From the NCBI GenBank assembly GCA_036733165.1, contig DAINBB010000005.1, forward strand, positions 5,547 to 69,546: a DNA stretch of 64,000 bases, written 5' to 3'. Below, one piece after another: positions 21,781 to 59,973 of this stretch; the first letter of the stretch is position 1, and each line of letters begins with the position of its first letter. The notes under the pieces are model-generated. The model was given only the letters and a program-made list of their open reading frames with translations, did not search any database and was not told the DNA's origin. This stretch comes from Halobacteria archaeon (GTDB lineage Archaea; Methanobacteriota_B; Thermococci; Methanofastidiosales; NM3). A program made the translations under genes and the position numbers.

Positions 21781-23018
21781 TTCAGAGCATCCCCTATTGC
21801 CTCCAATGTGGAGTCCACGATCCCATCGTCATGGCACGCCGATAGGAAGTTGGTCTCGAAGTGGGACGGCGGAAGGAAGTACCCGGAATCCAGCATCTTC
21901 CTCCAGAACTGCATGAAACGCCCCTTGTCCGCCCTTCTGGCATCATCTGCGTTCCTGACGTCCTCGCATCCAAAGTATATCTGGAACATGGCAGGGGCGC
22001 TTTTCACGCACGAGTCGCTGGGCAGCATATCCCTTACTCCCCTTACAAGCTGCTCGGCGCGCGAATGTATCTTGTCCAGCACCGCGCCTGAATTTAGGGT
22101 CTCGAGAGCGGCGAGGCCCGCGGCCATCGAGAGCGGATTTCCGCTGAAGGTCCCTGCATTGTAGACATTGCCCACCGGTGTGAAGTTCTCCATTATCTCC
22201 CTTGAGGAACCTATGACACCTATGGGCAGCCCACCGCCCGCTATCTTTCCATATGTGACTATGTCGGCATCAACGCCATAATATTCCTGGGCGCCGCCCA
22301 CCGAGAGCCTGAAGCCCGTTATGGTCTCATCGATTATGAACAGCGTGCCTGTCTCGTCGCATATCTTCCTGGCATCATTCAGATAACCATCGTTCGGGAC
22401 CACGCATCCGACGTTGCCCATCACCGGCTCCACGATGAAGGCCGCGACATCCTCTCTCTTCAGTGCATCCTCAAGGGATTCGGCGTCGTTGAATCCTACC
22501 ATCCTTGTGCCCCGCACCTGATTTTCGGTGACCCCTCGGGACGAGGCGACGACGCATTGGTCCTCCCTTTTCGTGAGCACGCCGTCGTGGGAACCATGAT
22601 ATCCCCCGTTGAGCATGGCTATTGTGGACCTGCCGGTGACGGCCCTGGCAAGGCGGAGGGCCGCCATTGTCGCCTCCGTGCCACTGTTCACGGTCCTTAT
22701 CATTTCAACGTTCGGTGCCAGTTCGCAGAACTTTTCGGCATACCTGACCTCCAGGGGGGTTGGCGTTCCGTACACCGCCCCCTTCTCTGCCTGGTCCCTT
22801 ATGGCCTTTACAATGGCGGGCTCGCTGTGACCTAGAATTATCGGCCCATAGGCGAGGCAGTAATCACAATACCTGTTTCCCTCAACATCCCATAGGTAGG
22901 CACCCTTGGCATGGTCTGTGAAGAAAGGATAGGGCGATATGGTGGCCCTGATGGGGGAGTTCACACCTCCAACGAGCCTCTTTACCGCATCGTTGTACAA
23001 CTTTTCATTTTTCATCAT
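21777..23018 (-). CDS. hemL: glutamate-1-semialdehyde 2,1-aminomutase
   Basis: 413 aa; class III aminotransferase fold; 4-bp overlaps on both sides. Confidence 0.9.
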   Translation of the reverse strand: MMKNEKLYNDAVKRLVGGVNSPIRATISPYPFFTDHAKGAYLWDVEGNRYCDYCLAYGPIILGHSEPAIVKAIRDQAEKGAVYGTPTPLEVRYAEKFCELAPNVEMIRTVNSGTEATMAALRLARAVTGRSTIAMLNGGYHGSHDGVLTKREDQCVVASSRGVTENQVRGTRMVGFNDAESLEDALKREDVAAFIVEPVMGNVGCVVPNDGYLNDARKICDETGTLFIIDETITGFRLSVGGAQEYYGVDADIVTYGKIAGGGLPIGVIGSSREIMENFTPVGNVYNAGTFSGNPLSMAAGLAALETLNSGAVLDKIHSRAEQLVRGVRDMLPSDSCVKSAPAMFQIYFGCEDVRNADDARRADKGRFMQFWRKMLDSGYFLPPSHFETNFLSACHDDGIVDSTLEAIGDALK

Positions 23019-23977
23019 AGCTCACCTATTATGTCGGGCGCGAAGTAGGTGGCGATCAGGTCGGCCCCTGCGCGCTTGATGCCGAAGAGCGTCTCAAGCA
23101 CGATGTCCCTCTCATCGAAACATCCCTGTGAAGCGGCCGCTTTTATCATCGAGTATTCGCCGGAGACATTGTATGCCATGACCGGCACCTTCACGGCGTC
23201 CCTTACGCGCCTTATGACGTCGAGGTAACATAGAGCGGGCTTGACCATCACTATGTCGGCCCCCTCCTCAATGTCCGCAAGCACTTCCTTGAGGGCCTCG
23301 TCCGAGTTCCTGTTGTCCATCTGGTACGACCTCCTGTCCCCAGACCGCGGAGCGGAGTTGCAGGCGTCCCTGAAAGGGCCGTAGAATGCGGACGCGTACT
23401 TGGCGGAATAGCTAATGATCGGTATGTGCTCGCATCCTTCGCCATCAAGGGCATCCCTTATGGCCTTCACCCTGCCGTCCATCATGTCGGACGGGGCGAC
23501 GACATCAGCCCCCGCCCTTACATGGCTAAGCGCGATCCTTGAGAGCAGGGGCAGCGACCTGTCGTTGTCCACCATCCCTCCACCTGACACGATCCCGCAG
23601 TGCCCAGTGTCTATGTACTGGCAGAGACAGACGTCGGTGATCAGTAGGAGGTCGTCCGTGGCGTCCCTCATCCTTGCGAGCGCCCTCTGCACAACGCCGT
23701 CGCTAGCGTAGGCGTCATGGGCGTCCGGGGAGCGGGACCTTGGTATCCCGAACATCAGCACGCTGCGTATCCCCTTCTCGACCAGCCCTTCCGCAAGGGC
23801 CCCTAAATCATCTATCCCGTACCTGTACTGCCCGGGCATGGAAGCTATCGGTTCGGTATCGCCGTCCTTCACGAATATCGGGTATATCAGGTCGTCACCT
23901 GAGAGCGAGGTCTCGGCCACGAGGTCCCTCAATATCGGATTGTATCTTAGTCTTCTTGGTCTGTCACGTGGAAACAT
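23015..23977 (-). CDS. hemB: porphobilinogen synthase (ALA dehydratase)
   Basis: 320 aa; active-site Lys regions and metal-binding Cys cluster (DVCLCQY). Confidence 0.9.
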   Translation of the reverse strand: MFPRDRPRRLRYNPILRDLVAETSLSGDDLIYPIFVKDGDTEPIASMPGQYRYGIDDLGALAEGLVEKGIRSVLMFGIPRSRSPDAHDAYASDGVVQRALARMRDATDDLLLITDVCLCQYIDTGHCGIVSGGGMVDNDRSLPLLSRIALSHVRAGADVVAPSDMMDGRVKAIRDALDGEGCEHIPIISYSAKYASAFYGPFRDACNSAPRSGDRRSYQMDNRNSDEALKEVLADIEEGADIVMVKPALCYLDVIRRVRDAVKVPVMAYNVSGEYSMIKAAASQGCFDERDIVLETLFGIKRAGADLIATYFAPDIIGEL

Positions 23978-25219
23978 CTATTCACACCCCTCATCTTCAT
24001 CCTTGGCGTTCCTGATGATCAGGTCGCGCACGGCATACGCCTTTTCCATGGGAACGTCCAGGTCCTGCACATTGAGGAACAGATTGTGAAGCGTCCTTTT
24101 CACCACGGCCTTGGAGAACGCCTCGACGGCACCCTTGTCGCTGCAAGAACCTGAGAGCAGCTTTTCCAGTTCCGCCTCCCTTATGGCCTCCGCGTGCAAT
24201 GATATGTCCCTTACAACGTTTTTCCTCTCCAGGAGCTGTGCCTGCCTCATGAGCGAGCTGTACTCTTCCCTTATTATCCGTCTTGCCGCCGGAATGTGCA
24301 TCCTTCGCTCTGCCTCCATTGCCCTTGACATCTCCCTTACCTTGTCCAGCCCGACGTAGGTTGTCCCTTCGATCCCTCTGGCCTCCGCATCCACATCAGG
24401 AGGCATTGCTACATCGATTATCGTGATATCATCCATCCTTTGTTCCCGCGCCTTCGTGATGTCCTCTCTGAACAGGAGCGCATGTGGTGCGGACGATGCG
24501 CAGAATATCAGGTCGACGATGGGCAGGTGGTCCCTGAAAAGCTCGTATGCTATGGCATTTGCCCCGGTCTCGCCCGCCAGTTCCTTGGCCCTCTCGAATC
24601 TCCTGTTCGTGACGAACACCGTGCTCCCCCCCTTCATGCTGAGGATCTTTGCCACCATCGCCGAGATCTTGCCGGCGCCAAGTATCAATATGTTCTTTCC
24701 ATCAAGTGGGCCCATCATCTCCTCTGCGATGCCGACGGCCACAGAGGCGATCGAGACGTTCCCTTGGCAGAGATCGGTTTCCGACCTGACTCTCTTTCCG
24801 GCCCTGATGGCCTTCTCGAAAAGTGGGATGAGGGTCTCGCCTGCGGTACCGAGCCCCTTCGAATGCTCCAGCGCACCCTTTACCTGCCCGAGTATCTGGT
24901 GCTCGCCGATTATCATCGAGTCGAGGGTGGTGGCCACCTCAAAGAGATGGAATACGGCCCCGTTGCCCTTCCTAAGCTTCATGATCTCGACGTCCTTGCC
25001 GAACGTCCTTTCCATTCCTGCCCTGAAGCTTTCCCATTCCTCCCTCGTCTCAACATATATCTCATACCTGTTGCAGGTCTTGATCACGACCACCTCGTCG
25101 GCCAGTCCCTCGCCGATCAGTCCGAGCATCATGCCGTCTTCCTCCTGATGTGTCTTGGAGAAGAAGGAAAGCGAGGTCAGTGAACAGTTCGAGTGGGCCA
25201 CGCTGGCGCTGATTATCAT
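23978..25219 (-). CDS. hemA: glutamyl-tRNA reductase
   Basis: 413 aa; catalytic Cys region (VIKTCNRYEIYV) and NADPH-binding domain. Confidence 0.85.
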   Translation of the reverse strand: MIISASVAHSNCSLTSLSFFSKTHQEEDGMMLGLIGEGLADEVVVIKTCNRYEIYVETREEWESFRAGMERTFGKDVEIMKLRKGNGAVFHLFEVATTLDSMIIGEHQILGQVKGALEHSKGLGTAGETLIPLFEKAIRAGKRVRSETDLCQGNVSIASVAVGIAEEMMGPLDGKNILILGAGKISAMVAKILSMKGGSTVFVTNRRFERAKELAGETGANAIAYELFRDHLPIVDLIFCASSAPHALLFREDITKAREQRMDDITIIDVAMPPDVDAEARGIEGTTYVGLDKVREMSRAMEAERRMHIPAARRIIREEYSSLMRQAQLLERKNVVRDISLHAEAIREAELEKLLSGSCSDKGAVEAFSKAVVKRTLHNLFLNVQDLDVPMEKAYAVRDLIIRNAKDEDEGCE

Positions 25220-25848
25220 GTCGCATCCTTCCTTAAGAGCTCCATCACCTTGTCGTAGCGCCCCTCATGGATGTTGGCCATTATCTCCTTGTCATCAAGC
25301 ATCCTTGCCACGAGCCCCCTGTCGAGCAGGCCTTCATCGTAGAGTGAATGCGCGATCCGTGAGAATGTGGAAATGCCGGGAAGCCCCCTCTCAATGTAAC
25401 GCTTCAGCGCATAGGCGCACTGGGGGCATGTGGCAAGGGATGAAACTGCAATTATGTCCTTTCCAACGTCGATTATCGCTGGAAATGCGATGTCGCCGGA
25501 TCCCCTGCTCGTGGCGACGTTGACAGGTATGGACCTGTCTATGCAATAGGACGCTATCCTCTCGTTGAGCGCGGCGTCGTCAAGTGCGCACACCACCAAA
25601 GAGGTCTCATCATCTATGAATCCCAAGAAGGAGTCGTTGTCGATGTCCGCCTTGATGAACTCAATGTCACCTTCACACACAATATCCTCCCGGTCTATGA
25701 GCCTGACATGCACCCCGAGCCCTGACAGGGAACTTGCCTTTCTCATGCCGACCTCCCCACCTCCGAAGACCAGGGCATGCCCCCTGATATACATTATCAC
25801 AGGGTACCTTGACACGCCATCCCCTTGCTGGACCAATCCATCGTTCAT
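25216..25848 (-). CDS. sirC: precorrin-2 dehydrogenase (SirC / siroheme synthase N-terminal domain type)
   Basis: 210 aa; Rossmann GGGxVG motif (LVFGGGEVGMRKA). Confidence 0.75.
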   Translation of the reverse strand: MNDGLVQQGDGVSRYPVIMYIRGHALVFGGGEVGMRKASSLSGLGVHVRLIDREDIVCEGDIEFIKADIDNDSFLGFIDDETSLVVCALDDAALNERIASYCIDRSIPVNVATSRGSGDIAFPAIIDVGKDIIAVSSLATCPQCAYALKRYIERGLPGISTFSRIAHSLYDEGLLDRGLVARMLDDKEIMANIHEGRYDKVMELLRKDAT

Positions 25849-25928
25849 CTCACCGCCGTCCCGTACATGAAAATAAGTCCCATGATAAACTGGAAGTAGG
25901 ATATTATTGTCTTTGTTTCAATATAATA

Positions 25929-26756
25929 TTATTTGAGGGAACGCTGCCGATGCCGCTTCAGAACGCAGCTTTCCAGCTTCTCTTCACCCAAGGGCCTGGC
26001 GTAATGCCTCTCAATGCCGTTTTCTATCATTTCAGCAAGCCCCTTGAAGGTCTTTGACAGGGGGTCGTCGGGATATGCCTCGATAAATGGGACCACCATC
26101 TCCTCCGCCCTCTGTATCCCCTTGTGTCTCGGGATCCGCGCGACTATCGGAAGGCCCACCTCAAGGGCGAACTCCTCGACCATCTCCTCATCGCCCTGCC
26201 CCCCTCTCGAGTTGAGGACTATCCCCCCTATGCGTGGGACATCTGTCTCATAGTTCGCGATGCCCCTGATGATATTGTTCGCGGCATACAGGGACATGAA
26301 CTCGCCGGACGTGACTATGAATATGGTGTCTGCATACTCCTTTCTCAGGGGCACGGCGAATCCTCCGCAGACCACATCCCCCAACACGTCATAGATGATA
26401 TAGTCTATATCGGGCGAGCTGCGGATGCCTTCCCTTCCAAGCAGTTCCAGCGTTGAGAGTATTCCTCTTCCGGCGCATCCGACGCCAGGTTCGGGCCCGC
26501 CCGCCTCGATGCACAATGCGCCCTTGTATCCCTCCAGGATGCAGTCCCTGACGTTCTCGAGCTTTTCCTTCCTTATCTGGTCAAGAACTGTAAACGGGTG
26601 GGTCCTGCCAAGAAGCAATCTTGTGGAGTCGTGCTTTGGGTCGCATCCTATCTGCACCACCTTCCTGCCCATGTCGGCCAGGCTTGCGGTCAGATTCGCT
26701 GAGATGGTGGACTTTCCGATCCCCCCTTTGCCATATACCGCTATCTGTCTTGTCAT
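25929..26756 (-). CDS. cfbC: NifH-like ATPase, Ni-sirohydrochlorin a,c-diamide reductive cyclase component CfbC
   Basis: 275 aa; P-loop GKGGIGKST and the two Fe4S4 ligand Cys, NifH family. Confidence 0.85.
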   Translation of the reverse strand: MTRQIAVYGKGGIGKSTISANLTASLADMGRKVVQIGCDPKHDSTRLLLGRTHPFTVLDQIRKEKLENVRDCILEGYKGALCIEAGGPEPGVGCAGRGILSTLELLGREGIRSSPDIDYIIYDVLGDVVCGGFAVPLRKEYADTIFIVTSGEFMSLYAANNIIRGIANYETDVPRIGGIVLNSRGGQGDEEMVEEFALEVGLPIVARIPRHKGIQRAEEMVVPFIEAYPDDPLSKTFKGLAEMIENGIERHYARPLGEEKLESCVLKRHRQRSLK

Positions 26757-26764
26757 GTCATCGC

Positions 26765-28141
26765 CTATTTCCTGAGATATTCCTTGGCCGAGTCGCAGAT
26801 GGCCATTGCCACCTTGCCCTGTGATGCCATATGAATGTGTGAGTATTGTGCGAGAACGTTCGATTCCATGATGCCGTCGTGCTTCCCGTCGATGCCTCTC
26901 CCCCTCTTGACATCAAAGGCGTATCTTATGTCATCCGATAAGCTTTCCACAGAGGAGTAGTGGAACTCGTGCCCTCTGATGACATCTCCCTGGCGGGCCA
27001 CTATGTTGCTTCTTATTGCCTCGATCTCCGAGTAGGATATGGATTGGCTTGTCCTGTGCATCCTGCTGTCTATGTCCAGGACCCCCGCCATCTTCCACCT
27101 GCGTCCGTCCAGGTCTGTCAGTTCCCTGCCAAGATACATCATTCCGCCGCATTCCGCATAGACAGGCATCCCGTCATCGATAAGCGTCTTCATGTGCCTA
27201 ATAAAATCCTTGTTGCCGCCCAACCGTTCGGAATGGCACTCGGGATAACCGCCCAGGAGCAGGAGCGCGGAGGTGTCGTCTGGCAATCGCCTGTCGGAGA
27301 GGGGCGATATGTACTCTATCCTTGCCCCAAGGGCCCTCAATGCTCTCAGATTCTCGTGATATATGAACGTGAAGGCCTTGTCGTGGGCGACCGATATCAT
27401 GAATCCTTCCTTTTCGAAGGCGTTTTCCTCCACCTCAACGTCCAGGTCGGGCGCGTTGCACGCCAACTCGAACAGTGCATCCACATCCACCGCCCCCTCA
27501 ACGGTGTCTGCTGCGGCATCTATCGCCTTTTCGCTGTCCTCGTTCTCCGCTACGGTGATCAGGCCCAGGTGCCTCATGGTCACAGAAAGCTCTCTGTCCC
27601 TCCTGATGGATCCGTATATCCTTTTCCCTGTCCTCTGCCATATGGCAGACGTTGCCTTGATATGATGCCTTGGCCCTTTGACCATGTTTATTATGAATCC
27701 CGATACATCGACGTCCCTGTCATATTCCATGAATCCCAGGGCCGATGCCGCAGCCCCCCTTGCGAGGCTTTGGATGTTCATCACCAATACCACCGGTGCC
27801 GAGAGGACCTTTGCGAGATGTGCCGTGCTTCCCTCGTCCCCCAAGGGGGACGCTCCGTCATAGAGGCTCCTTACCCCTTCTATGAGCACTATGTCGGAAT
27901 CAAGGGCGGCCTCGCCCACCGACCTCATGATGTGCTCCGGCGCCATCATCCACGTGTCCAGATTCCCCGATGGTCTCCCTGAGGCGCGCGAGAGGTACTC
28001 GGCATCTATATAATCGGGCCCGGACTTGAAGCATTTGACCTTGAACCCCCTTCGCTGGAGCGCCCTGGCGAGACCCATCGTCACGAAGGTCTTCCCGGAG
28101 TTGCTCGAGGTCCCCGAGATCACAAGCCTTGGGCACCTCAC
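26765..28141 (-). CDS. cfbB: Ni-sirohydrochlorin a,c-diamide synthase (CbiA family) CfbB
   Basis: 458 aa; CbiA N-terminal ATPase (GTSSNSGKT) plus C-terminal glutaminase domain; GTG start (28141 or 28123). Confidence 0.85.
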   Translation of the reverse strand: MRCPRLVISGTSSNSGKTFVTMGLARALQRRGFKVKCFKSGPDYIDAEYLSRASGRPSGNLDTWMMAPEHIMRSVGEAALDSDIVLIEGVRSLYDGASPLGDEGSTAHLAKVLSAPVVLVMNIQSLARGAAASALGFMEYDRDVDVSGFIINMVKGPRHHIKATSAIWQRTGKRIYGSIRRDRELSVTMRHLGLITVAENEDSEKAIDAAADTVEGAVDVDALFELACNAPDLDVEVEENAFEKEGFMISVAHDKAFTFIYHENLRALRALGARIEYISPLSDRRLPDDTSALLLLGGYPECHSERLGGNKDFIRHMKTLIDDGMPVYAECGGMMYLGRELTDLDGRRWKMAGVLDIDSRMHRTSQSISYSEIEAIRSNIVARQGDVIRGHEFHYSSVESLSDDIRYAFDVKRGRGIDGKHDGIMESNVLAQYSHIHMASQGKVAMAICDSAKEYLRK

Positions 28142-29250
28142 CCCATCACCATTGACCTGATCGTGCTGCCGAAACGCGATTCCACGATGTCACTTGCGCC
28201 GAGGACGTTGTGATGGGCCATTCCCTCATCCAGCACGATGCCGTATCCCAGTTTCTTGAGGGCGAAGAGGGCACGGGAACCGGTTGCCACGGCCATAGTG
28301 TTCTCCTTTTCCCATAACGGGACGGCATGCGGCAGTCCGCAGACCACTATGGCACCCCATTCCGCACCTTCGGACAACACCATTTCCGCTGCGCGTCTTC
28401 CCGTCACGGAGTATTCGTCCGGTCCACCGGTGACATGGTCCAATGTGATGCCTACCCTTTCGAATGCATTGAGCATTATGGAGGAATAGTGCCTTATCTT
28501 CGGAAGCCCTACCGATCCAGAGGCGTTCGCGACATAGAAGAGGCGCGATGCCGAGCCGAGCGCATCATGGGCCTCCTTTACTGCACAAAGCACGTCTGCG
28601 TACAGGAGGGAGGTCTCCTTCTTTGCGTTGAGCACCAGTGCCAACGGGTCACCGGACTCGAGCCTTCCTATCAAAAACCTTGCGGCCGCCTTATGGTCAT
28701 CGCCCGCAAAGGTGTCCAGATACGTCTCCCTGGCAGTGCCGTATGTCCTCTCGTTGACGTTTGCCGCCACCAACATGTCTTTTTGCCTCTTCGCCTCCTC
28801 CGGTGTGATGATGCCTTCGGCCGCGGCAGATTCCAACGCCCTTATCGCACCGTCGACATTGTCCGGATTGTACGGGTCGCAGTTGACCACTATCGTCTTG
28901 CACGACAGGCCGGCATGATGGACCGCCTTTTCTATGTCCTCGCCTATTATGGCTGCGCAGCAGGTGCCGACCACTCCCACCAATCTTGGGTTGAACCGCC
29001 TCTCGACCTCCCTCAGCGTGTTTATTAGTTTTGGTTCCCCCCCGAATATGACCGATTTCTGGTCCAGGGAGGAAGTCACCACCCTGACATTGTCCCGCTC
29101 AAGCAGCCTTGATGCCCTGAAGTTGCACCCCGCGGGGCCGTGGAGCACGATGACCTCCACGCCAAGGTCCCTAAGCGTGTACATGGCGGCTGCGATGGGG
29201 CTTGGTCTGGGATGCAGTATCCTTTCTGATTCCTCGTTCAGTTTGTACAT
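28138..29250 (-). CDS. cfbD: NifD/NifE-like subunit of the reductive cyclase CfbD
   Basis: 370 aa; nitrogenase component 1-type oxidoreductase fold with conserved Cys (HGPAGC, GTCCAAIIG). Confidence 0.85.
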   Translation of the reverse strand: MYKLNEESERILHPRPSPIAAAMYTLRDLGVEVIVLHGPAGCNFRASRLLERDNVRVVTSSLDQKSVIFGGEPKLINTLREVERRFNPRLVGVVGTCCAAIIGEDIEKAVHHAGLSCKTIVVNCDPYNPDNVDGAIRALESAAAEGIITPEEAKRQKDMLVAANVNERTYGTARETYLDTFAGDDHKAAARFLIGRLESGDPLALVLNAKKETSLLYADVLCAVKEAHDALGSASRLFYVANASGSVGLPKIRHYSSIMLNAFERVGITLDHVTGGPDEYSVTGRRAAEMVLSEGAEWGAIVVCGLPHAVPLWEKENTMAVATGSRALFALKKLGYGIVLDEGMAHHNVLGASDIVESRFGSTIRSMVMG

Positions 29251-30638
29251 GAGATGATCACCCCTTCCTCCTCGGTGATCGAATCAGTGGCCTCGTCCTT
29301 TGTTGAGAACATCGGGGCGTTGCAACCTCTTTTGGCCATTTCGGAGCCAAGCTCCCCGTACAGCGCCACATTCCTCCCATCTAAAATATGGCATTTGAGC
29401 ATCGATGAAAGACCATCGAAGTCCACCTTTCCGCATGTTGTCTTGGAGAGCCCCCCTATCAGCAGGGACAGCCGTCTCCTTGTGAGCTCTGCATAGTCCT
29501 TGGCCTCGACGATGGCATTGTCGATCGTCTCCTTCGATGTGGCGGTCGATGAGATGATAGTGCATCCGCATCTGTTCGATGCGACAAGTCTGTTGTCTGG
29601 CGGCACGCTCTTCTCCAACCCTTCTACAATCGATAGTTCATCCATATTCATTGACAGTGCTATTGATGCTGCCGCAAGGAAGTTAGAGACGGCGCTCCTC
29701 CCAAAATAGGACCTGTTGGGTGAGAACTCCATCGTCGTGTCGATTTGATTGCCCTTGACCGTACTTAGATTGCTCACGTCGATAGTCAATCTTCCGGTAT
29801 CCGGATTGAGCGCCTTTTTGTCCGCCACGACATTTCCATCCCCCTCGACAGAGAACATATTCGTCTTGGACGGCGCCATCATCTCCATCCTTCTTGTCGG
29901 GTCGTCATCGCCGTTGAGGCAGAGGACGGATGTCGGACGGATGTACTGTGCCATCTGGGCCTTTGAGAAGAACGAGCTCCTGTTCACGCCCACCCTTAGG
30001 TGCAGCGGAACGCCCAGCACCGCGCATACCGATCCTATTCCAAGTCCGCCGAGAGATATCTCAAAGACATAGTTCTTTGGATTGTACCCAGATTCCCTTG
30101 TTATCCTGACAGCCTTCAAGGCGTAGGCGGGGGTGATGCTGCCGTTTCCATCCAAAATGCGGACATTGTCCCCCTCGACCACCTTCACGCCCTTGCTGGA
30201 CATGACCATGCTTTCCTCCCCGTCACGGACCAGGATGGATTCAAGATGCGTGACCGTCGTGGTCTTTCCGTAGGCGCCTGTGATCTCCACTATCCTGCAT
30301 TTTCCCAACATATCGGATAGGATGAGCCCGGTGGCCCTTGCATGGGTAAGGAGCGGTATCCCCTCCTCCCCGCAAAACTGGGTTATGTCCTCTCTGTTCG
30401 GGGAGTACTGCATGGTGACGAGGTGCGGGTCTGCGGTCACCAGTGCGTCGTTGAAGGTCTTGAACACAGGTATCGAACTGGCTGAAAGGCATGCCAGTTC
30501 CTCTTTTTTGAGGGTACCATGGACATCGACGGCTGTAACATTGGCTCCGTATCTTGAGTACGAATCGCATAGCTCCATTCCGCCATGGGTCATGTCGACA
30601 ACGACAACGTTTTTGCCCCTTATCCTTTCGATGTACAT
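29238..30638 (-). CDS. cfbE: coenzyme F430 synthetase (Mur ligase family) CfbE
   Basis: 466 aa; Mur-ligase middle-domain P-loop (ITGAYGKTTT). Confidence 0.8.
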   Translation of the reverse strand: MYIERIRGKNVVVVDMTHGGMELCDSYSRYGANVTAVDVHGTLKKEELACLSASSIPVFKTFNDALVTADPHLVTMQYSPNREDITQFCGEEGIPLLTHARATGLILSDMLGKCRIVEITGAYGKTTTVTHLESILVRDGEESMVMSSKGVKVVEGDNVRILDGNGSITPAYALKAVRITRESGYNPKNYVFEISLGGLGIGSVCAVLGVPLHLRVGVNRSSFFSKAQMAQYIRPTSVLCLNGDDDPTRRMEMMAPSKTNMFSVEGDGNVVADKKALNPDTGRLTIDVSNLSTVKGNQIDTTMEFSPNRSYFGRSAVSNFLAAASIALSMNMDELSIVEGLEKSVPPDNRLVASNRCGCTIISSTATSKETIDNAIVEAKDYAELTRRRLSLLIGGLSKTTCGKVDFDGLSSMLKCHILDGRNVALYGELGSEMAKRGCNAPMFSTKDEATDSITEEEGVIISCTN

Positions 30639-36928: not shown

Positions 36929-38098
36929 ATGCAAGTATGTTCTATGTTAATGCCGAATTATCAGGATGGCAGCATAGTCAACATCATGTCGACAATGGAG
37001 GAGGCATATGGCCTGGAACACGCTTATGGCACGTTAAAGGGCCTTGATCCTGGAGAGATCGGGGAATTCAGGAACGTGGTCTTCATTCTCATCGATGGTC
37101 TTGGATATCAATACCTTGGGACGCATCAGAGGGACAGTTTCATCCATGATAAGGTCCTGACGAGGATCACTTCGGTCTTCCCAACGACCACATCCGCCTC
37201 CATCACGTCATTGGCCACAGGAGTCGCGCCCCAGCAACATGCGGTTACTGGCTGGTTCATGCACCTCAAGGAGGTTGGCGTTGTTTCACAGATATTACCG
37301 TTCAACCCACGGATCGGGGGGATGATGTTCAGCGACATAGGCCTCACCCCTTCCATGTTCATAGACCGTGGCCTGATATTCGATAGGCTGCCAGTGGATT
37401 GCACGTGCATCATAAAGGACGACATCATAGCCTCCGCCTTCTCTAGCTTTATGGCCGGCATGTCGGAGAGGGTGGCATATGTAGGTCTAGAAGGATTTTT
37501 CAAAAGGATAAGGGAGGCTTGTGCCGGCGAGCATCCCAAGAGATTCATATATGCGTATTGGTCCCATTTTGACACGCTCTGTCACCTCTATGGTGTCGAC
37601 AATGAAGCGACCCATGCGCACTTCAGGGAGATAGATGATGGCCTCAGGTCACTCTACGAAGACCTTTCGGGCAGCGACACGTGCATAATTGTCACTGCCG
37701 ACCATGGGCAGCTTGACGTGACGGATGAGACGACGGTCCAGCTGTCGGACCATCCCAGTATACTTAATTGCATGACGCTGCCCATATGCGGGGAGGCCAG
37801 GGCGGCATTCTGTTACGTCAGACCCCGTCTTGCCAATAGCTTTGAGAGATATGTTGAAGATGAGCTCGGTGAGTACTGTGCGCTTCTCAAGGGCCATGAG
37901 ATGATCGAAGAAGGCTTCTTTGGGTCTGGAGAACCTAATCCAAGGCTTTTTGACAGGGTCGGCGACTATGTTCTCATGATGAAGGATAACTACGTGATCA
38001 GGGATAGGCTTCTTGGTGAAAGGGAACATGTGCTCAAGGGGTATCATGGGGGTCTCGACAGCGAAGAGCTCTATGTCCCATTGCTCTACCTGACCTAA
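36929..38098 (+). CDS. alkaline-phosphatase-superfamily protein (nucleotide pyrophosphatase/phosphodiesterase-like)
   Basis: 389 aa; metal-site motifs ILIDGLGYQYL and FPTTTSASITSLATGVAPQQHAVTGW as in type I phosphodiesterase/NPP family. Confidence 0.6.
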   Translation: MQVCSMLMPNYQDGSIVNIMSTMEEAYGLEHAYGTLKGLDPGEIGEFRNVVFILIDGLGYQYLGTHQRDSFIHDKVLTRITSVFPTTTSASITSLATGVAPQQHAVTGWFMHLKEVGVVSQILPFNPRIGGMMFSDIGLTPSMFIDRGLIFDRLPVDCTCIIKDDIIASAFSSFMAGMSERVAYVGLEGFFKRIREACAGEHPKRFIYAYWSHFDTLCHLYGVDNEATHAHFREIDDGLRSLYEDLSGSDTCIIVTADHGQLDVTDETTVQLSDHPSILNCMTLPICGEARAAFCYVRPRLANSFERYVEDELGEYCALLKGHEMIEEGFFGSGEPNPRLFDRVGDYVLMMKDNYVIRDRLLGEREHVLKGYHGGLDSEELYVPLLYLT

Positions 38099-38691
38099 AA
38101 GAAGTGGACGAGCCCATCATAGGCAAAATATATGCCAAAGACCACAAGTATCGCGACCGATACAAGGGTGAGGGCCCTCTCCGCTTTCCTGCCGAGCGTT
38201 CTGGACGATTTATTTGACATCAGCGAGACGAATTCGAGCCACACCATGTCACACATCTCATGTATGATGATGAACATCACGAGACCGATGATCCCGAAGG
38301 CGATCGATTGCAGGATAAGATGGAAACCGATTGTCAGCCACCAGATGATGAAGTAGGGATTGAGGGAGCTCATCAGCAGTCCTGAGATTATTCCCTTCGT
38401 AGGCCTTGTACGCTCCTCTGATGAGTATTCGGAGTAGGCGAAGTAGAGCAGCACGATGCCCCCGACAAGTCCGATGGCCGCCTTGATGTCGTTGGTGATC
38501 ACAACATTTCCGAACAGGAACAGGGCGAGTATTATTGGGATTTCAACGCTTGCGTGTCCCAGGGATATGAAGAATCCGGCAAACTTGTTGTTCTTTCCCT
38601 CGGCCATGGTCACTGCAAGCAGTGGTCCTGGCGCCAGGACCCCGCTTAGTGATATCAAGAATACGCTGGCCATAAATGCCAAGAACTCCAT
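38095..38691 (-). CDS. LysE/RhtB-family amino-acid exporter
   Basis: about 198 aa, 6 TM helices; ATG at 38691 (GTG 38697 in track). Confidence 0.7.
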   Translation of the reverse strand: MEFLAFMASVFLISLSGVLAPGPLLAVTMAEGKNNKFAGFFISLGHASVEIPIILALFLFGNVVITNDIKAAIGLVGGIVLLYFAYSEYSSEERTRPTKGIISGLLMSSLNPYFIIWWLTIGFHLILQSIAFGIIGLVMFIIIHEMCDMVWLEFVSLMSNKSSRTLGRKAERALTLVSVAILVVFGIYFAYDGLVHFF

Positions 38692-38795
38692 GGACACCTC
38701 AAGATGCTTTCTTCTTATATTTTTTTCTATGGGTGCCGATTCAACGGCCCGGATTCATTGCATCAAAACAGAAAAATATATAAGTGTCTTAATTT

Positions 38796-38811
38796 ATTCG
38801 GAATACCGAAT
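38796..38811. promoter_or_regulatory. palindromic operator ATTCGGAATACCGAAT (ATTCG-N6-CGAAT) in the divergent lysE / feoA-1 promoter region
   Basis: inverted repeat read directly; 40 bp upstream of the feoA-1 ATG. Confidence 0.5.
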
Positions 38812-38851
38812 ACGCCTTTTATTTATAAAGACCTAATCTCAGGGACCATAC

Positions 38852-39082
38852 ATGAACGAATCAATGCCGCTTAGCATGACCAAAGAGGGAAAAAAGTGCG
38901 AGATCCTAGAGGTCAACGCCGGCAGGGGCCTTTCCAGGAGGCTGGCAGAGCTCGGATTCGTCAAAGGATCAACGGTCACGGTCACACGCTCTGAAGCAGG
39001 GGCCATGATCGTGTTCATCAACGGGCAGAGATTCGCGCTGAGCCGTGGCATAGCAATGAAGATATCTGTGAGATGTCAGTAG
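38852..39082 (+). CDS. feoA: ferrous iron transport protein A
   Basis: 76 aa SH3-like FeoA. Confidence 0.85.
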   Translation: MNESMPLSMTKEGKKCEILEVNAGRGLSRRLAELGFVKGSTVTVTRSEAGAMIVFINGQRFALSRGIAMKISVRCQ

Positions 39083-39129
39083 TTTTGGTATTCTGGAATT
39101 ATTTCGTCCGACCGAAAACTATATATATC

Positions 39130-39145
39130 ATTCGGTATACCGAAT
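39130..39145. promoter_or_regulatory. perfect 16-bp palindrome ATTCGGTATACCGAAT upstream of feoA-2, with an imperfect companion TTTCG-N6-CGAAA at 39102-39117
   Basis: perfect dyad centred on TATA, 35 bp upstream of the feoA-2 ATG. Confidence 0.5.
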
Positions 39146-39179
39146 ATAATAAGGTAAACAGAACAAGGAGCTAGGCAAG

Positions 39180-39419
39180 ATGCGTTGCACCAAGATGATT
39201 CACGATATCCCATTGAGCAATATTCCAGAAGGCGAGATATGTGAGGTGGACCATATATCTGCCGGCAGGGGATTGGCCAGGAGACTGGCGGAGCTCGGAT
39301 TCCTGGCGGGGACAAGACTTACCGTCAACAGGTCTGAGGGCGGCAGCATGATAGTATGCGTCAACGGACAGAGATTCGCGCTGAGCCGTGGCATAGCGAG
39401 CAAGATAAGCATCAAATGA
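39180..39419 (+). CDS. feoA: ferrous iron transport protein A (second copy)
   Basis: 79 aa FeoA paralog in tandem. Confidence 0.85.
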   Translation: MRCTKMIHDIPLSNIPEGEICEVDHISAGRGLARRLAELGFLAGTRLTVNRSEGGSMIVCVNGQRFALSRGIASKISIK

Positions 39420-39435
39420 TTCTAGGTTGGAACTT

Positions 39436-41427
39436 ATGGAGAATGACAACATCACGATAGCCTTGGCTGGTAATCCGAACGTTGGCAAGACCACGCTTTT
39501 CAACTCCCTCACGGGGACCAGGCAGCATGTTGGTAACTGGCCTGGTGTGACCGTGGAGAAGAAGGTCGGCACTGCGAGACACAAGGGCAGGGACATCACG
39601 ATAGTGGACCTTCCGGGGACATACAGCCTCAGTGCTTACTCGCTGGACGAGCTTGTCACGCGAGACTATATAATCAAGGGCCGTCCTGACGCCGTGATAC
39701 ACATCCTGGATGCATCCAATCTGGAAAGGAATCTTTATCTCACCATACAGTTGCTTGAACTGGACGTCAACGTCGTTCTTGCCCTCAACATGTACGACAT
39801 CGTCAAGAACAGGGGCGACACCATCGATGTGGAAATGCTTTCGAAGAATCTTGGCGTTCCCGTTGTCGAAACGGTCGCAAGCACCGGCGAGGGCATCGAG
39901 GAACTGATAGACGCGGCATTGCGCCTTCCCAAGGAAGGCATCGAGAGGTACAGGCCGTTCTACGGGGAAGACCTTGAGGAAAGGATATCGAAGGTCATGG
40001 ACGTGCTTGGTGGGGACGACAAGGTAACGCCCCGCTTCCCTAGGCGCTGGCTTGCCATAAAGGTGCTCGAGGAGGACAAGGAGGTCCTCAAGCTTCTGGA
40101 GGGAAGCGAGGTCGAACCGAAGCTGAAGCGTTACATGGACGGCGTTGGACAGAACACGGAACTGGAGCTTGTGAACAGGAGGTACGAGAACGTCCGATGC
40201 GTCATGTCTGGATCATGCAAGCTTTCCGACGGGGGCATGGACCCCTCAGACATGCTTGACAAGGTGGTCACCAACAAGTACCTTGGAATACCCATATTCC
40301 TCGCCATGATGTGGGCCGCCTTCGAGATGACGTTCAAGGTGGCCGAACCCTTCACGATAATGATAGACAAATTCTTCAGCTGGCTCATGGTGCTGATAAC
40401 GGAGAACGTGGGCAATGGGACGATAGCGTCGCTTCTTGGGGACGGCATCATAGGCGGCGTAGGTTCCGTGCTCGTGTTCGTGCCAAACATATTCCTCCTT
40501 TTCCTGATAATATCGCTGCTCGAGGACAGCGGTTACCTCGCCAGGGCCGCCTTTGTCATGGACAAGGTCATGTCCAGGATAGGTCTTCACGGCAAGTCCT
40601 TCATACCGCTACTCATCGGCTTCGGTTGCAGTGTGCCGGCCATCATGGCATGCCGCTCCATCGAGGACAACAAGGACCGCATAATAACGATCCTCTCAAC
40701 GCCTTTCATCACGTGTGGCGCACGCTTCCCGGTATATGTGCTGTTCGCCGGTGCCTTCTTTGCCGATTCGGAGGGCACTGTGGTCTTCTCCATGTACCTC
40801 TTGAGCATATTGATGGCCATAGTCTCCGTGATACTCCTGAGGAGGTTCATATTCAAGGGCGAGAAATCGCCTTTCATACTGGAGATCCCGCCATACAGGA
40901 TGCCGACCATGAGGTCGGCATTGCTCCACATGTGGGACAGGGGCAAGATGTACCTCAAGAAGGCGGGGACGATAATATTCCTTGGCGCCATAATAATATG
41001 GGTCCTGGCGTCATTCCCGCCAGGTGTGGAATACGGCAGCGGCGACAGCTTTGTGGGGATGATAGGCAAGGTACTCGAACCCCTCATAAGTCCGTTGGGC
41101 TTTGACTGGAAGATAGCCGTGGCCCTGACACTGGGTTTCGTCGCAAAGGAGATAGTGGTTGGCTCCCTTGGAACGTTATATGGCACGGGCGAGAACGACG
41201 ACCTGCTCAGGGACCAGTTGAGGAACGACCCCAGCATGACACCCCTGACCTCGTTGGGCGTCATGATATTCACGCTCATATACGTACCGTGCCTGGCCAC
41301 GGTGGCGATAATCAGGAAGGAGACGAATTCCTGGAAGTGGACATTGTTCTCCATCCTTTACAGCATGTCTTTGGCATGGGTCATAACGTTTGTAGTATAT
41401 CGCGTAGGTCTGCTTTTGGGTTATTAG
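39436..41427 (+). CDS. feoB: ferrous iron transport protein B
   Basis: N-terminal G-domain (GNPNVGKTTLFN) plus polytopic membrane domain; ATG 39436 (TTG 39427 in track). Confidence 0.9.
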   Translation: MENDNITIALAGNPNVGKTTLFNSLTGTRQHVGNWPGVTVEKKVGTARHKGRDITIVDLPGTYSLSAYSLDELVTRDYIIKGRPDAVIHILDASNLERNLYLTIQLLELDVNVVLALNMYDIVKNRGDTIDVEMLSKNLGVPVVETVASTGEGIEELIDAALRLPKEGIERYRPFYGEDLEERISKVMDVLGGDDKVTPRFPRRWLAIKVLEEDKEVLKLLEGSEVEPKLKRYMDGVGQNTELELVNRRYENVRCVMSGSCKLSDGGMDPSDMLDKVVTNKYLGIPIFLAMMWAAFEMTFKVAEPFTIMIDKFFSWLMVLITENVGNGTIASLLGDGIIGGVGSVLVFVPNIFLLFLIISLLEDSGYLARAAFVMDKVMSRIGLHGKSFIPLLIGFGCSVPAIMACRSIEDNKDRIITILSTPFITCGARFPVYVLFAGAFFADSEGTVVFSMYLLSILMAIVSVILLRRFIFKGEKSPFILEIPPYRMPTMRSALLHMWDRGKMYLKKAGTIIFLGAIIIWVLASFPPGVEYGSGDSFVGMIGKVLEPLISPLGFDWKIAVALTLGFVAKEIVVGSLGTLYGTGENDDLLRDQLRNDPSMTPLTSLGVMIFTLIYVPCLATVAIIRKETNSWKWTLFSILYSMSLAWVITFVVYRVGLLLGY

Positions 41428-41435
41428 GTGATGTC

Positions 41436-41879
41436 ATGAATACTGAAATAAGGAGAAAGTCAATATACTCTGCCGGCGTTGGCGGCGTGTACCTATCATT
41501 CGGTCTTGTCCAGTTCGTCTTCTCACTGGGGGTCGGGACATCTTCACTGCGATACCTCAACATCGATGACAACATCTTCGGAGGATTCATAATGGCGCTC
41601 ATAGGGGTGGTATTCATCTTCGCCCTTGAGAGGATGAGGAGGGACGATGTTGAGGGCACCGCGTTCCAGTTCTCGGGCATATTCCTGTCGTTGCTCTTTG
41701 CCGGGATCAATCTGTTGATACTTGGCGCCGATCTTTTAAGCGCGGCCCTTGAGGGCGGATCTTTGGAACTGCTCGGGAGCATCACCCCGATAATATACCT
41801 CGGCGTGCTCTCACTTGCCGGGCTGATGCTGTGGAAGGATGAGTTCTCGTTAAACAGGCTGAGCAGAGCGGGGGCATGA
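41436..41879 (+). CDS. small membrane protein of unknown function downstream of feoB
   Basis: 147 aa from ATG 41436, 4 predicted TM helices; the track ORF start lies inside feoB. Confidence 0.45.
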   Translation: MNTEIRRKSIYSAGVGGVYLSFGLVQFVFSLGVGTSSLRYLNIDDNIFGGFIMALIGVVFIFALERMRRDDVEGTAFQFSGIFLSLLFAGINLLILGADLLSAALEGGSLELLGSITPIIYLGVLSLAGLMLWKDEFSLNRLSRAGA

Positions 41880-41923
41880 TGAAATATTGAGAAAACTATA
41901 ATAATAGAAGGTATAATAAAATA

Positions 41924-41939
41924 ATTCGTTCATGCGAAT
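41924..41939. promoter_or_regulatory. ATTCGTTCATGCGAAT dyad (same ATTCG-N6-CGAAT half-sites) immediately upstream of the DtxR-family gene, next to a TATA-like ggtataataaaa
   Basis: 18 bp upstream of ATG 41957; suggests autoregulation. Confidence 0.45.
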
Positions 41940-41956
41940 AGTGTTTGGTGTTGCGA

Positions 41957-42418
41957 ATGCCTACCATAAAAACAGAGGAGTATATAGAGGTCATATACGA
42001 AATTGTGGAAAAGAAGGGTTATGCTAGGGTGAAGGATGTCGCCCTGATGCTTGATGTCGGCCTTTCAACAGTCTCTGAAATGTTCCAGAAGCTCAGTAAT
42101 GAGGACTATATCAATTATGAGAAGTACAGCGGCGTCACCCTCACCGAAAAAGGCGAGAAGCTGGCAAAGCTTCTGGAGAGGAGGCATGGCACCATAAAGA
42201 GCTTCCTTAAGCTGTTGGGCCTTCCCGAGGACCTTGCGGACAAGGAGGCGTGCACACTGGAACACGTCATGGAGAAAGAGACCATAGAACGCCTCACATG
42301 TTTTGTGGATTTCATCGATTCCATCGAGAATCCCCCCTGGCTGGAGAGATTCAAGGTATACTGCGCCACAGGCGAACTGATAGAATGCCCAAACAAGGAC
42401 TGTTCAAGGTGTGATTGA
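41957..42418 (+). CDS. DtxR/MntR-family metal-dependent transcriptional repressor
   Basis: 153 aa from ATG 41957; N-terminal wHTH, metal-site His/Glu/Cys residues, C-terminal Cys-rich tail. Confidence 0.8.
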   Translation: MPTIKTEEYIEVIYEIVEKKGYARVKDVALMLDVGLSTVSEMFQKLSNEDYINYEKYSGVTLTEKGEKLAKLLERRHGTIKSFLKLLGLPEDLADKEACTLEHVMEKETIERLTCFVDFIDSIENPPWLERFKVYCATGELIECPNKDCSRCD

Positions 42419-42429
42419 TCCTTTTTATA

Positions 42430-42810
42430 TCAGTCCTTGGCCCTGATGATTATCTTCTTTGGATTGGTGATCCCGAGCAGGGGTGTGTGGTCGACCATCT
42501 TCCCGATCACATTGACCGCCGATGCGGGCCTGGGCCTCTCGTCGACAGATATCGGGGTGCGCCCGAAGAAGATGCACAGCACATCGCCCGGCGGCCAGAA
42601 ACCGATGTCGCCGGCCTCGAGATCCTCTGTCGGATTCTCGTCCCCTATGTGGAAGGGGACCTTGAAGTAGAACTCCCCTCCCCAGCTCACAGGACTCCCT
42701 TTTATTGGAAGGGATTCAAGTAGCATCTTGGCAGTATCCGGGCTCTTGTCGTCATAGATGTACCCCTCGAATGTCTGACCGTCTATCTCTATCTCTATAT
42801 CGTTTCTCAT
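42430..42810 (-). CDS. cyclophilin-like fold protein (DUF369/PF04126-like)
   Basis: about 127 aa from ATG 42810; small beta-barrel protein typical of archaea; family call from memory. Confidence 0.45.
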   Translation of the reverse strand: MRNDIEIEIDGQTFEGYIYDDKSPDTAKMLLESLPIKGSPVSWGGEFYFKVPFHIGDENPTEDLEAGDIGFWPPGDVLCIFFGRTPISVDERPRPASAVNVIGKMVDHTPLLGITNPKKIIIRAKD

Positions 42811-54581: not shown

Positions 54582-54869
54582 ATGGGCGCGCCCAATCTCG
54601 ATGATTTTTATTCAAAACCAGACTACTGCATAAAAGCGCACATGATGGCCCGTGAAATGTACAAATGGGACCAACCTCCATTTGTCATGGACCCTGGCTA
54701 CCTAACTGAAATTTGGGGCGGAAAGGCCATGCGCTTGGCATGGGTTGCGAGCTTCCGCCGCCGTCCCCTCCGTCAAATGTGTTCGGCATGGTCAAGGCAG
54801 CAGAGGAATATGGAAGACGCTGATCTTCCTTTATCTTTTTATATTCATATCTATCTTTTTTACCTATGA
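54582..54869 (+). other. unresolved ORF: about 50 plausible N-terminal codons that decay into AT-rich sequence and overlap the DUF1638 start; possible gene remnant
   Basis: MGAPNLDDFYSKPDYCIKAHMMAREMYKWDQPPFVMDPGYLTEIWGGKAM looks protein-like; the remainder is low-complexity. Confidence 0.2.
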
Positions 54870-55609
54870 GACGATTGGGAATAATCTCTTGCCAGGTGTT
54901 CGAATGGGAACTGGCCCACATTCTCGACAAGAGGCGCGACATAGACAACATATATATCTTAAACACGCCTGAGAACAAGGGGTTTGCCCAATGCCTGAAC
55001 AATCACAAGGCAAAGCTCATCAGGGACCCCTACTTTCTGCCAAGGCTCTCGAGGACCTTGGATGTATTGGTCAACATACTGCCCATAGGTCTTCATATAG
55101 ACATCGACGAGCTTGAGTACGAATGCAACGAAAACATCAACACCTTCAAGGAATGTGCCTCAAGGGTCCTTCTTCTCTATGGTCTCTGTGGCAATGCCCT
55201 GAAGAACATCATCCACAGAGAGGATGTCGATCTCCTTTATCCCCGTGACAGCGAAGGGCTTGTCGACGACTGCATATGCTCCATCTTGGGCAGGGAGCGG
55301 TATTTCGAGGAACTTAAGCGAAATGGCAGCTTCTTCATGATACCCGGAATGGTGAATCATCGCGATGGCATGGTGGGGCGTATAGAGGAAAGGGTGTCAA
55401 GGGCATACTCAGACGAGGACACCAAGTTGCTGCTCCAGGTCAATGAGTATGAGAGGGCGCTCATAGTCGAGGAGGGCATAGAGACGGACGACTACCTCAG
55501 AAGGGCCCACCTCTTGGCGAATAATTTTGGGCTTGCGATTGAGAGGACTGCCGGCGACCTCTCCCTTTTGGAAGATACCATCGATAATGCGCTTTCCTCG
55601 ATGGATTAA
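54866..55609 (+). CDS. DUF1638 domain protein (paralog 1)
   Basis: 247 aa; shares IISCQVFE...ILPIGLHID...LLYGLCGNA...VDDCICSILGRE blocks with the 58813-59538 paralog. Confidence 0.6.
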   Translation: MRRLGIISCQVFEWELAHILDKRRDIDNIYILNTPENKGFAQCLNNHKAKLIRDPYFLPRLSRTLDVLVNILPIGLHIDIDELEYECNENINTFKECASRVLLLYGLCGNALKNIIHREDVDLLYPRDSEGLVDDCICSILGRERYFEELKRNGSFFMIPGMVNHRDGMVGRIEERVSRAYSDEDTKLLLQVNEYERALIVEEGIETDDYLRRAHLLANNFGLAIERTAGDLSLLEDTIDNALSSMD

Positions 55610-59538: not shown

Positions 59539-59619
59539 GAAAAAACATGATGTCCTTGGTATATAAGTTTGAGCTTGTATTATCATAATAGCACATATGA
59601 TAATATATAAGGAAATTAA

Positions 59620-59760
59620 AAGGTGGACCAGCACCCCCGACAATTGGGTTAAGGTGCTACGTTCAGTACGAACACCTCTTTTTTCAGGTGCTGGTCCGTG
59701 CAACGATCTCCTACATAGGGCCTTTCGGTGTATGCAGTTCCAAACCACCGAAGTGATTTG
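59620..59760. ncRNA. candidate structured RNA: nested inverted repeats in a 430-bp non-coding gap
   Basis: 11-bp perfect stem ggaccagcacc (59625-59635) / ggtgctggtcc (59687-59697) enclosing an inner aggtg..gttc-agtac-gaac..cacct hairpin; second stem ttcggtg / caccgaa at 59724-59752; strand and identity unknown. Confidence 0.2.
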
Positions 59761-59973
59761 AGAGACCCATGTGATCGACGTTCCAGAACAGTACACTGAA
59801 TTCCTGTTCCTTTGCTCCCACATGTTTGTTGCAATATAATATACACATCATTCCTATATAAATTTATTTTGACAAAAAGAAATTGATATTGATACATTAT
59901 GTATCAGTTCTAACCATTAAAATGTAAAAAATAAGATATATTATAAAATAATAAAAAATATTATCATATCTAA

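Follow-up and report, generated by a model that had tools for sequence, protein, structure and literature searches.

Metal-dependent repressors of the DtxR family that act through palindromic operators, both at feoAB and at the genes encoding them, are already known. In Actinobacteria, IdeR and DtxR act at iron-uptake promoters through the 19-bp box TTAGGTTAGSCTAACCTAA, for which the per-dimer consensus of IdeR is the 14-mer TTAGGNNNNCCTAA, with inverted 5-bp half-sites set 4 bp apart (PMC8464063). Here we describe five short inverted repeats (dyads) in a 64,000-nucleotide archaeal sequence of the Methanofastidiosales (contig DAINBB010000005.1; the whole stretch is hereafter called the window), where they lie before the ferrous-iron uptake genes feoA1 and feoA2-feoB and before an adjoining gene for a DtxR/MntR-family regulator. 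From the sequence and placement of the dyads, we put at roughly 80% the probability that all five are operators of this adjacent regulator, which would repress both the uptake genes and its own gene. The overall logic is textbook; what is new is the motif for an uncultured lineage, the five-site layout, and a natural T3-to-G3 operator variant accompanied by changes at the base-contact residues of IdeR.

Among archaea, DtxR homologues are reported to repress iron-uptake genes in Thermococcus kodakarensis and, as MDR1, their own gene in Archaeoglobus fulgidus (PMC3074139). MDR1 is likewise a metal-dependent, autorepressing repressor of the DtxR type, although its consensus is quoted as GTT-N8,9-AAC (PMC3074139), unlike the TTCGG dyad of the window. 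The TroR motif of Haloferax volcanii, TTTAGGC-N3-CCTAAA, has the same layout as the window dyad and occurs in tandem copies about 30 bp apart (PMC10783522). The sites of TroR are found some 100 nt ahead of start codons and carry TTAGG half-sites, whereas those of the window adjoin TATA boxes and carry TTCGG. Archaeal DtxR-family regulons, reportedly with ten motif groups, were predicted through comparative genomics by Leyn and Rodionov in 2015 (J Bacteriol 197:451, as cited in PMC10783522), reportedly including FeoAB-controlling regulators named FetR, which are said to follow the same concept of a DtxR-family factor encoded beside feoAB with palindromes upstream of transporter genes. The lineages carrying loci of the window type are uncultured and represented by metagenome-assembled genomes (MAGs) mostly sequenced after that work.

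Five dyads in the feo locus

The candidate operators and the regulator gene are as follows.

38796–38811, no strand assigned: S1, candidate operator, ATTCGGAATACCGAAT, exact match to the 16-mer
39102–39117, no strand assigned: S2up, degenerate candidate operator, TTTCGTCCGACCGAAA, exact TTCG-N6-CGAA core
39130–39145, no strand assigned: S2, candidate operator and perfect palindrome, ATTCGGTATACCGAAT, exact match to the 16-mer
41924–41939, no strand assigned: S3, candidate operator for autoregulation, ATTCGTTCATGCGAAT, exact match to the 16-mer
41943–41958, no strand assigned: S3dn, degenerate candidate operator, GTTTGGTGTTGCGAAT, overlapping the regulator ATG
41957–42418, forward strand: DtxR/MntR-family metalloregulator, 153 residues, Pfam Fe_dep_repress and Fe_dep_repr_C

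The 16-mer ATTCGNNNNNNCGAAT (ATTCG-N6-CGAAT) matched exactly three times in 64 kb, at the promoters of feoA1, feoA2-feoB and the DtxR-family gene, against 0.12 matches expected from dinucleotide-preserving shuffles of the window (n=100), none of which reached three. Its TTCG-N6-CGAA core gave four exact matches, every one in the feo locus (0.90 expected; 1 of 100 shuffles reached four), the fourth being the degenerate copy S2up. When two mismatches were allowed across the window there was no excess (23 found, 35 expected), and therefore only the good copies are special. The original prediction had named three ATTCG-N6-CGAAT repeats, and the exact search recovered each of them and found the motif nowhere else in the 64 kb; its degenerate TTTCG-N6-CGAAA copy also proved to be real, while the fifth site, over the regulator ATG, had been missed. 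S1 ends 41 bp before the feoA1 ATG. From the end of S3 to the regulator ATG at 41957 we counted 17 nt, essentially the 18 bp given before, and S3dn begins 19 bp past the start of S3, the offset between S2up and S2 being 28 bp.

Written from the half-sites, S1 is TTCGGaataCCGAA, S2 is TTCGGtataCCGAA and S3 is TTCGTtcatGCGAA, all of which fit a TTNGG-N4-CCNAA geometry, as do the sites of relatives. The inverted 5-bp half-sites, the 4-bp gap and the location at metal-uptake promoters and an adjoining DtxR-family regulator gene are shared with IdeR and DtxR. TTAGG/CCTAA half-sites were not found, since the third base is C/G rather than A/T at all strong sites. In IdeR, T3 of CCTAA is in van der Waals contact with Ser37 and Pro39, and a T3-to-G3 change abolishes specific IdeR binding in electrophoretic mobility shift assays (PMC8464063). 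The dyad is thus not a classical IdeR/DtxR box, because its third base is the variant that IdeR fails to bind, even though it would function in the manner of one. It had been claimed that the half-site differs from the corynebacterial box, which holds insofar as TTCGG/CCGAA replaces TTAGG/CCTAA, but only one base per half is changed and the layout is the same. The arrangement of the sites is a further difference: the 19-bp corynebacterial box consists of two interleaved per-dimer units, whereas the window dyads contain no second pentamer pair and stand separately, 19 or 28 bp apart, without interleaving at a 5-bp offset.

Conservation and recurrence in related loci

Labels of the form L0xx denote loci or contigs from relatives that were compared with the window; the two closest, L027 and L028, are metagenomic, encode regulators 87% and 78% identical to that of the window, and keep its gene order (lysE, feoA1, feoA2, feoB, membrane protein, regulator). 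In three intergenic alignments of the window with these two loci, invariant columns made up 44/50 half-site positions, 15/30 spacer positions and 100/257 other intergenic positions (Fisher test, p = 6e-11), and the conserved islands coincided with the dyad half-sites and TATA-like boxes. S1 is identical in L027 and has one mismatch in L028 (TTCGG to TCCGG), while L085 has ATTCGAAACACCGAAT at the same distance from feoA1. The right half of S2up, gaCCGAAA, shows no change among the window, L027 and L028 and is also present in L085; the half-sites of S2 are invariant around a varying spacer in L027 and L028 (GGTATACC / GGACTACC), with ATTCGGGTTACCGAAT in L085. The spacers of S3 are all different (TTCATG, ACTCAA, AAATAG and, in L085, ATATAG) between fixed ATTCG and CGAA[T/A] halves in the window, L027, L028 and L085, and S3dn keeps TTTGGTG and CG.ATG in L027 and L028. 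The dyads are present, conserved, specific to the feo and regulator promoters, and family-typical in layout.

Fixed half-sites with a drifting spacer are the pattern expected of a protein-binding dyad and not of an RNA stem. Palindromes of this kind might nevertheless act at the RNA level, as hairpins for attenuation, termination or processing, and not as DNA bound by a protein, given that any palindrome is able to fold and that a terminator-like scan marks S1, where a 7-bp stem is followed by a T-rich tail. Such a role is hardly credible, however: the region 38000–42600 had no Rfam match at E <= 1, the stems are just 5–6 bp, most sites lie at or upstream of the predicted transcription starts and beside TATA boxes, and primary sequence beyond mere pairing ability is kept at five sites and across lineages. 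Moreover, the S1 change in L028 (TTCGG to TCCGG) is uncompensated, and the T-rich tail after S1 is not kept there. The terminator reading of S1 was rejected as resting on a feature that is not conserved.

Beyond the alignable loci, the regulators of L086, L088, L092, L093 and L091 are 58–64% identical to that of the window and their intergenic DNA cannot be aligned with it, but TTCGG-N4-CCGAA-type dyads occur upstream of the first feoA and/or the regulator gene in all five, where they adjoin TATA boxes, as well as in L085; over these six loci, regulator identity to the window ranges from 58 to 86%. Across 13 loci, matches with at most one mismatch numbered 22 in 4.4 kb of 150-bp upstream regions and 3 in the other 159 kb, a 264-fold higher density, and almost all lineages examined have a dyad before the gene of the regulator as well. 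The 19-bp tandem offset of S3 and S3dn recurs in L086, L088, L092, L093, L034 and L039. Everted palindromes (CCGAA-N5-TT[C/T]GG, CCTAA-N5-TTAGG) seen upstream of many regulator orthologues had hinted that the half-sites of the true unit face the other way; this reading was rejected, as these palindromes are the inner halves of tandem dyads 19 bp apart. In an initial set of 26 related loci, whose regulators are no more than 61% identical, an exact ATTCG-N6-CGAAT search gave no match, which reflects distance and not absence, because closer and intermediate relatives have the dyad.

More distantly, about 30 feoB-linked homologues from Thermoplasmata MAGs, 40–50% identical to the window regulator, have two tandem TTAGG-N4-CC[T/A]AA dyads upstream of their feo operons. 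The family-level motif is thus TT[A/C/T]GG-N4-CC[T/G/A]AA, the window clade having the 'C/G' version. As a separate observation on the same 30 or so loci (L010, L016, L017, L022 and others), the two dyads keep a constant 46-bp spacing upstream of feoA and lie some 280 and 326 bp ahead of the feoB match; CCAAA is always the end of the upstream dyad, and CCTAA usually that of the downstream one. This 46-bp-spaced pair looks like a conserved two-operator promoter design.

Placement of the dyads at promoters

Three promoter elements were predicted in the window, each with a TATA box and, for the two feoA genes, a TFB recognition element (BRE).

38771–38785, forward strand: predicted BRE/TATA of feoA1, GAAAAATATATAAG, with conserved block cAGAAAAgTTTATtAA in the feoA1 intergenic alignment (A1)
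39116–39129, forward strand: predicted BRE/TATA of the feoA2-feoB operon, AAACTATATATATC, with TTTATATATC invariant in alignment A2
41893–41922, forward strand: A/T-rich region with the predicted TATA box(es) of the regulator gene, GAAAACTATAATAA and GGTATAATAAAAT, of which GAAAACTATAATAA is common to L027

S1 lies about 10 bp downstream of the conserved feoA1 BRE/TATA. That of feoA2 is flanked, with S2up directly upstream and S2 directly downstream, and S3 directly follows the A/T-rich stretch in which the TATA box of the regulator gene is predicted, in agreement with an earlier remark that the third dyad adjoins a TATA-like box. The usual distance from TATA box to transcription start in archaea is about 25 bp, and the start sites in the window were placed on this spacing. 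On that assumption S1 would cover the feoA1 transcription start, S2 would fall between the feoA2 TATA box and its start site, and S3 with S3dn would run from the TATA region across the regulator start codon. A sigma-70 promoter scan was disregarded, the model being inapplicable to archaea.

The first dyad had been ascribed to a divergent lysE/feoA1 promoter. The feoA1 half of this assignment stands, as about 41 bp separate S1 from the feoA1 ATG in the window, in L027, in L028 and even in L085, where lysE and feoA1 are 360 bp apart; a role of S1 at lysE was rejected, since the fixed distance of the dyad is to feoA1 and not to lysE.

Recognition helix and the third base of the half-site

The recognition-helix region of the window regulator reads D-V-G35-L36-S37-T38-V-S40-E41, in which G35, S37, T38 and E41 align with Ser37, Pro39, Thr40 and Gln43 of IdeR, so that Ser37, Pro39 and Gln43 are replaced by Gly, Ser and Glu. 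The window CCGAA is the T3-to-G3 variant of CCTAA, and G35 and S37 sit at the positions with which IdeR touches T3. Helices of the form G-[L/F]-S-[T/A]-V-S-E go with TTCGG sites in the window, L027, L028, L085, L086, L088, L092 and L093, and x-P-[A/S]-S-V-T-E helices go with TTAGG sites in the more distant feoB-linked relatives. Both types stand side by side in L091, where a K-P-S-S-V-T-E paralogue lies beside TTAGGgaatCCTAA, ahead of an ATP-binding cassette (ABC)/SufBD operon, and a G-L-S-A-V-T-E paralogue has TTCGGcttaCCGAA before its own gene. This co-variation of helix and site supports the adjacent regulator as the binding protein.

It is possible, although we hold the idea only tentatively, that the helix change (Ser/Asn-Pro-Ala-Ser-Val-Thr-Glu to Gly-Leu-Ser-Thr-Val-Ser-Glu) co-evolved with the T3-to-G3 change in every half-site, insulating the feo regulon from TTAGG-reading paralogues, of which L091 with its two helix types would be an example. 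How IdeR reads base 3 is disputed, direct and indirect readout both being argued for. If the idea is true, the specificity shift would offer a natural, testable pair for how the DtxR family reads this base. A one-residue code from helix to base 3 was considered and rejected, as lineages with G35 use C, T or A at that base.

The two L091 paralogues lie at 1868–2340 and 5001–5465, with SufBD, ABC and ZIP genes between them. The first has an in-frame stop (...VVYRR*EGVSL...), for which a pseudogene, an assembly error or recoding are possible explanations.

The same evidence bears on whether the dyads are bound by another transcription factor encoded elsewhere, the adjacency of the DtxR-family gene being incidental. 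The case for binding by the regulator comes from sequence, some relatives have further winged helix-turn-helix genes in the locus (FeoC-like or TrmB-like), and L088 and L091 hold a second DtxR paralogue. A different factor is nonetheless most unlikely, because TTNGG-N4-CCNAA is the per-dimer signature of the DtxR family, the half-site type changes with the recognition helix of the regulator, and the dyad precedes the regulator gene in nearly all lineages. In addition, the window locus has no gene for FeoC or any other regulator, nor does the whole window contain a second DtxR paralogue.

The regulator and its metal ligands

The window regulator has a 100% identical counterpart at NCBI, in a Candidatus Methanofastidiosa MAG. 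It shares with IdeR and DtxR the N-terminal winged helix-turn-helix, the dimerisation/metal domains and the Cys-x-x-Glu-His ligand motif, but consists of two domains without the SH3-like third one (no FeoA/SH3 match in Pfam). By sequence its nearest described relative is Bacillus MntR (PDB 1on1, 2f5d, 6kta), the closest solved structures being 6kta and 1on1 (E 4e-26), with residues 1–121 aligned gap-free. Its predicted metal ligands E8, E11, H77, C99, E102 and H103 align with D8, E11, H77, E99, E102 and H103 of MntR; four are kept, while E8 and C99 depart from the Mn-selective set. C99 aligns with Cys102 of DtxR and is conserved as AC.[IL]EH across the archaeal clade.

The window protein further differs from MntR in a 30-residue archaeal C-terminal tail (WLxxFxxYxxTGxxxxC...) and in its genomic linkage, which is to feoAB and not, as for the Bacillus protein, to mntH/mntABCD. 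In the archaeal regulators this tail of about 30 residues (P-x-W-L-x-x-F-x-x-Y-x-x-T-G-x-x-x-x-C...C-P) stands in place of the DtxR SH3 domain, and in the window (42320–42418) it holds four cysteines, YCATGELIECPNKDCSRCD. The Cys-rich tail could be an extra metal or Fe-S site; we know of no description of it.

A DtxR-type Cys ligand within an MntR-like architecture makes Fe(II) sensing plausible on sequence comparison, and this ligand set together with the constant feoAB linkage favours Fe2+ as the effector. The same regulator acting at the same operators might instead sense Mn2+, or metals broadly, as an MntR-type switch with FeoB as a Mn2+/Fe2+ importer. The best structure matches are indeed to Bacillus MntR (E 4e-26 to 1e-24), the best NCBIfam models are MntR equivalogs, the two-domain architecture without an SH3 domain is that of MntR, and some homologues carry the JGI label 'DtxR family Mn-dependent transcriptional regulator'. 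We consider manganese sensing unlikely, however. The protein scores under the cut-off of the MntR equivalogs (NF003025, 120.4 bits against 138; NF008273, 95.4 against 153), and D8 and E99 of MntR are replaced by Glu and Cys, the latter aligning with a primary-site ligand of DtxR. The residue at this Cys102 position is reported to have a role in Fe/Mn selectivity (Guedon and Helmann 2003). Furthermore, the regulator genes of this family are tied to feoA-feoB in dozens of lineages, and the window genes run against Pfam included neither an NRAMP nor a Mn ABC transporter.

Proposed mechanism of regulation

We suggest that a metal-loaded dimeric repressor, most likely with Fe2+, would set its two recognition helices in successive major grooves of TTCGG-N4-CCGAA (in broader form, ATTCG-N6-CGAAT). 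At feoA1 it would occupy a site over the predicted transcription start, at feoA2-feoB two sites bracketing the TATA box, and at the regulator gene two sites 19 bp apart that extend from just past the TATA region across the start codon. Repressor on these sites would keep TBP/TFB from binding or RNA polymerase from being recruited, so that with plentiful metal both ferrous-iron uptake and repressor synthesis would be off, and with scarce metal the repressor would dissociate, allowing the genes to be expressed. Sites that abut, overlap or flank TATA boxes fit with archaeal repression by blocking of the pre-initiation complex and with autoregulation. In this scheme we infer which protein binds, whether it represses or activates, which metal it carries and where exactly transcription starts. 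The proposal that the adjacent DtxR-family regulator uses the dyads as its operators, also at its own gene, appears well founded, being supported by the conservation of the half-sites, their recurrence, their placement at TATA boxes and their IdeR-like layout.

Several points weigh against this interpretation. The assignment of protein to site is purely correlative, and the correlation between helix and site is unclean and involves few independent clades: the GLSSVTE group is mixed, with TTAGG/CCAAA in L094, one TTCGG and one TTAGG..CCTAA dyad in L001 and TACGG/CCGAA in L007, and L090 (60% identity, GFSTVSE helix) is without a good dyad. The specificity of the dyads holds only for the 64 kb of the genome that were scanned and not for the whole regulon. 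Iron as the effector is less certain, because the regulator is closest by sequence to the manganese-sensing MntR and because the FeoB-type transporters of some bacteria can carry Mn2+.

The motif ATTCGG-N4-CCGAAT for a feo-linked metalloregulator of Candidatus Methanofastidiosa and related Thermoplasmata MAGs would permit prediction of metal regulons from metagenomes, and the natural T3-to-G3 operator variant with matching helix changes could be used to test how DtxR, IdeR and MntR discriminate the central base.

Genes of the feo locus

The remaining genes of the locus are as follows.

38095–38691, reverse strand: lysE, Pfam LysE, divergent from feoA1
38852–39082, forward strand: feoA1, 76 residues, with its own promoter, Pfam FeoA 1.1e-19
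39180–39419, forward strand: feoA2, 79 residues, first gene of a feoA2-feoB-MJ0565 unit, Pfam FeoA 5.5e-18
39436–41427, forward strand: feoB, ferrous-iron transporter, 663 residues, Pfam FeoB_N 2.6e-69, Gate, FeoB_C and FeoB_Cyto
41436–41879, forward strand: multi-pass membrane protein, 147 residues, PF27307 (MJ0565) listed for orthologues in precomputed Pfam

Pfam confirmed the previously assigned feoA-feoA-feoB-DtxR gene identities, and the DtxR-family gene is co-localised with feoAB both here and in over 40 related loci; dyads lie upstream of feoA. The window membrane protein (41436–41879) had no match in local copies of Pfam or NCBIfam. Its gene always comes after feoB in these archaeal loci, with synteny in L007, L014, L027 and L028 and orthologues also in L085, L088 and L093, and this MJ0565-family protein may be an accessory subunit of the Feo systems of archaea. 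Several relatives, namely L007 (3110–3370), L014 (5650–5930) and L086 (4728–4970), have a small winged-helix gene of FeoC-like type, with a Cys cluster, between the membrane protein and the regulator; in the window clade this gene is lost, or was never present.

Other features of the window

Pfam searches of 40 further open reading frames (ORFs) of the window identified tetrapyrrole/F430, molybdenum cofactor, ABC, P-type ATPase and DUF364 genes, all of them lacking the dyad. A contiguous tetrapyrrole cluster on the reverse strand (19481–30638) encodes GlutR, ALAD, an aminotransferase, porphobilinogen deaminase and a TP_methylase-HEM4 fusion, together with a NifH-like ATPase, a CobB/CobQ-like amidotransferase and a nitrogenase-component-1-like protein. 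It resembles a gene set for making coenzyme F430 (Cfb), as would fit a methanogen. DUF1638 genes (54866–55609, forward strand; 58813–59823, reverse strand) and a RACo-type corrinoid activase (9695–11533, forward strand) typically accompany the corrinoid methyltransferase systems of methyl-reducing methanogens, and a HypD gene is also present. With its F430-type cluster, RACo, DUF1638 and HypD, the gene content of the window fits a methyl-reducing methanogen.

A full-length heliorhodopsin gene (60568–61344, reverse strand; Pfam 3e-98) is found in this apparently strictly anaerobic, methanogen-type genome, and the part of the window from 60 to 64 kb has a G+C content of 0.41, compared with about 0.51. 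Finally, an identical 16-mer, CTTGGAGAGGACGAAT, occurs at 17036–17051 and 18368–18383, 1.3 kb apart, inside ORF 16790–19414 (forward strand), the gene of a large beta-helix/PMP-repeat protein, and this duplication indicates long internal repeats in the ORF.

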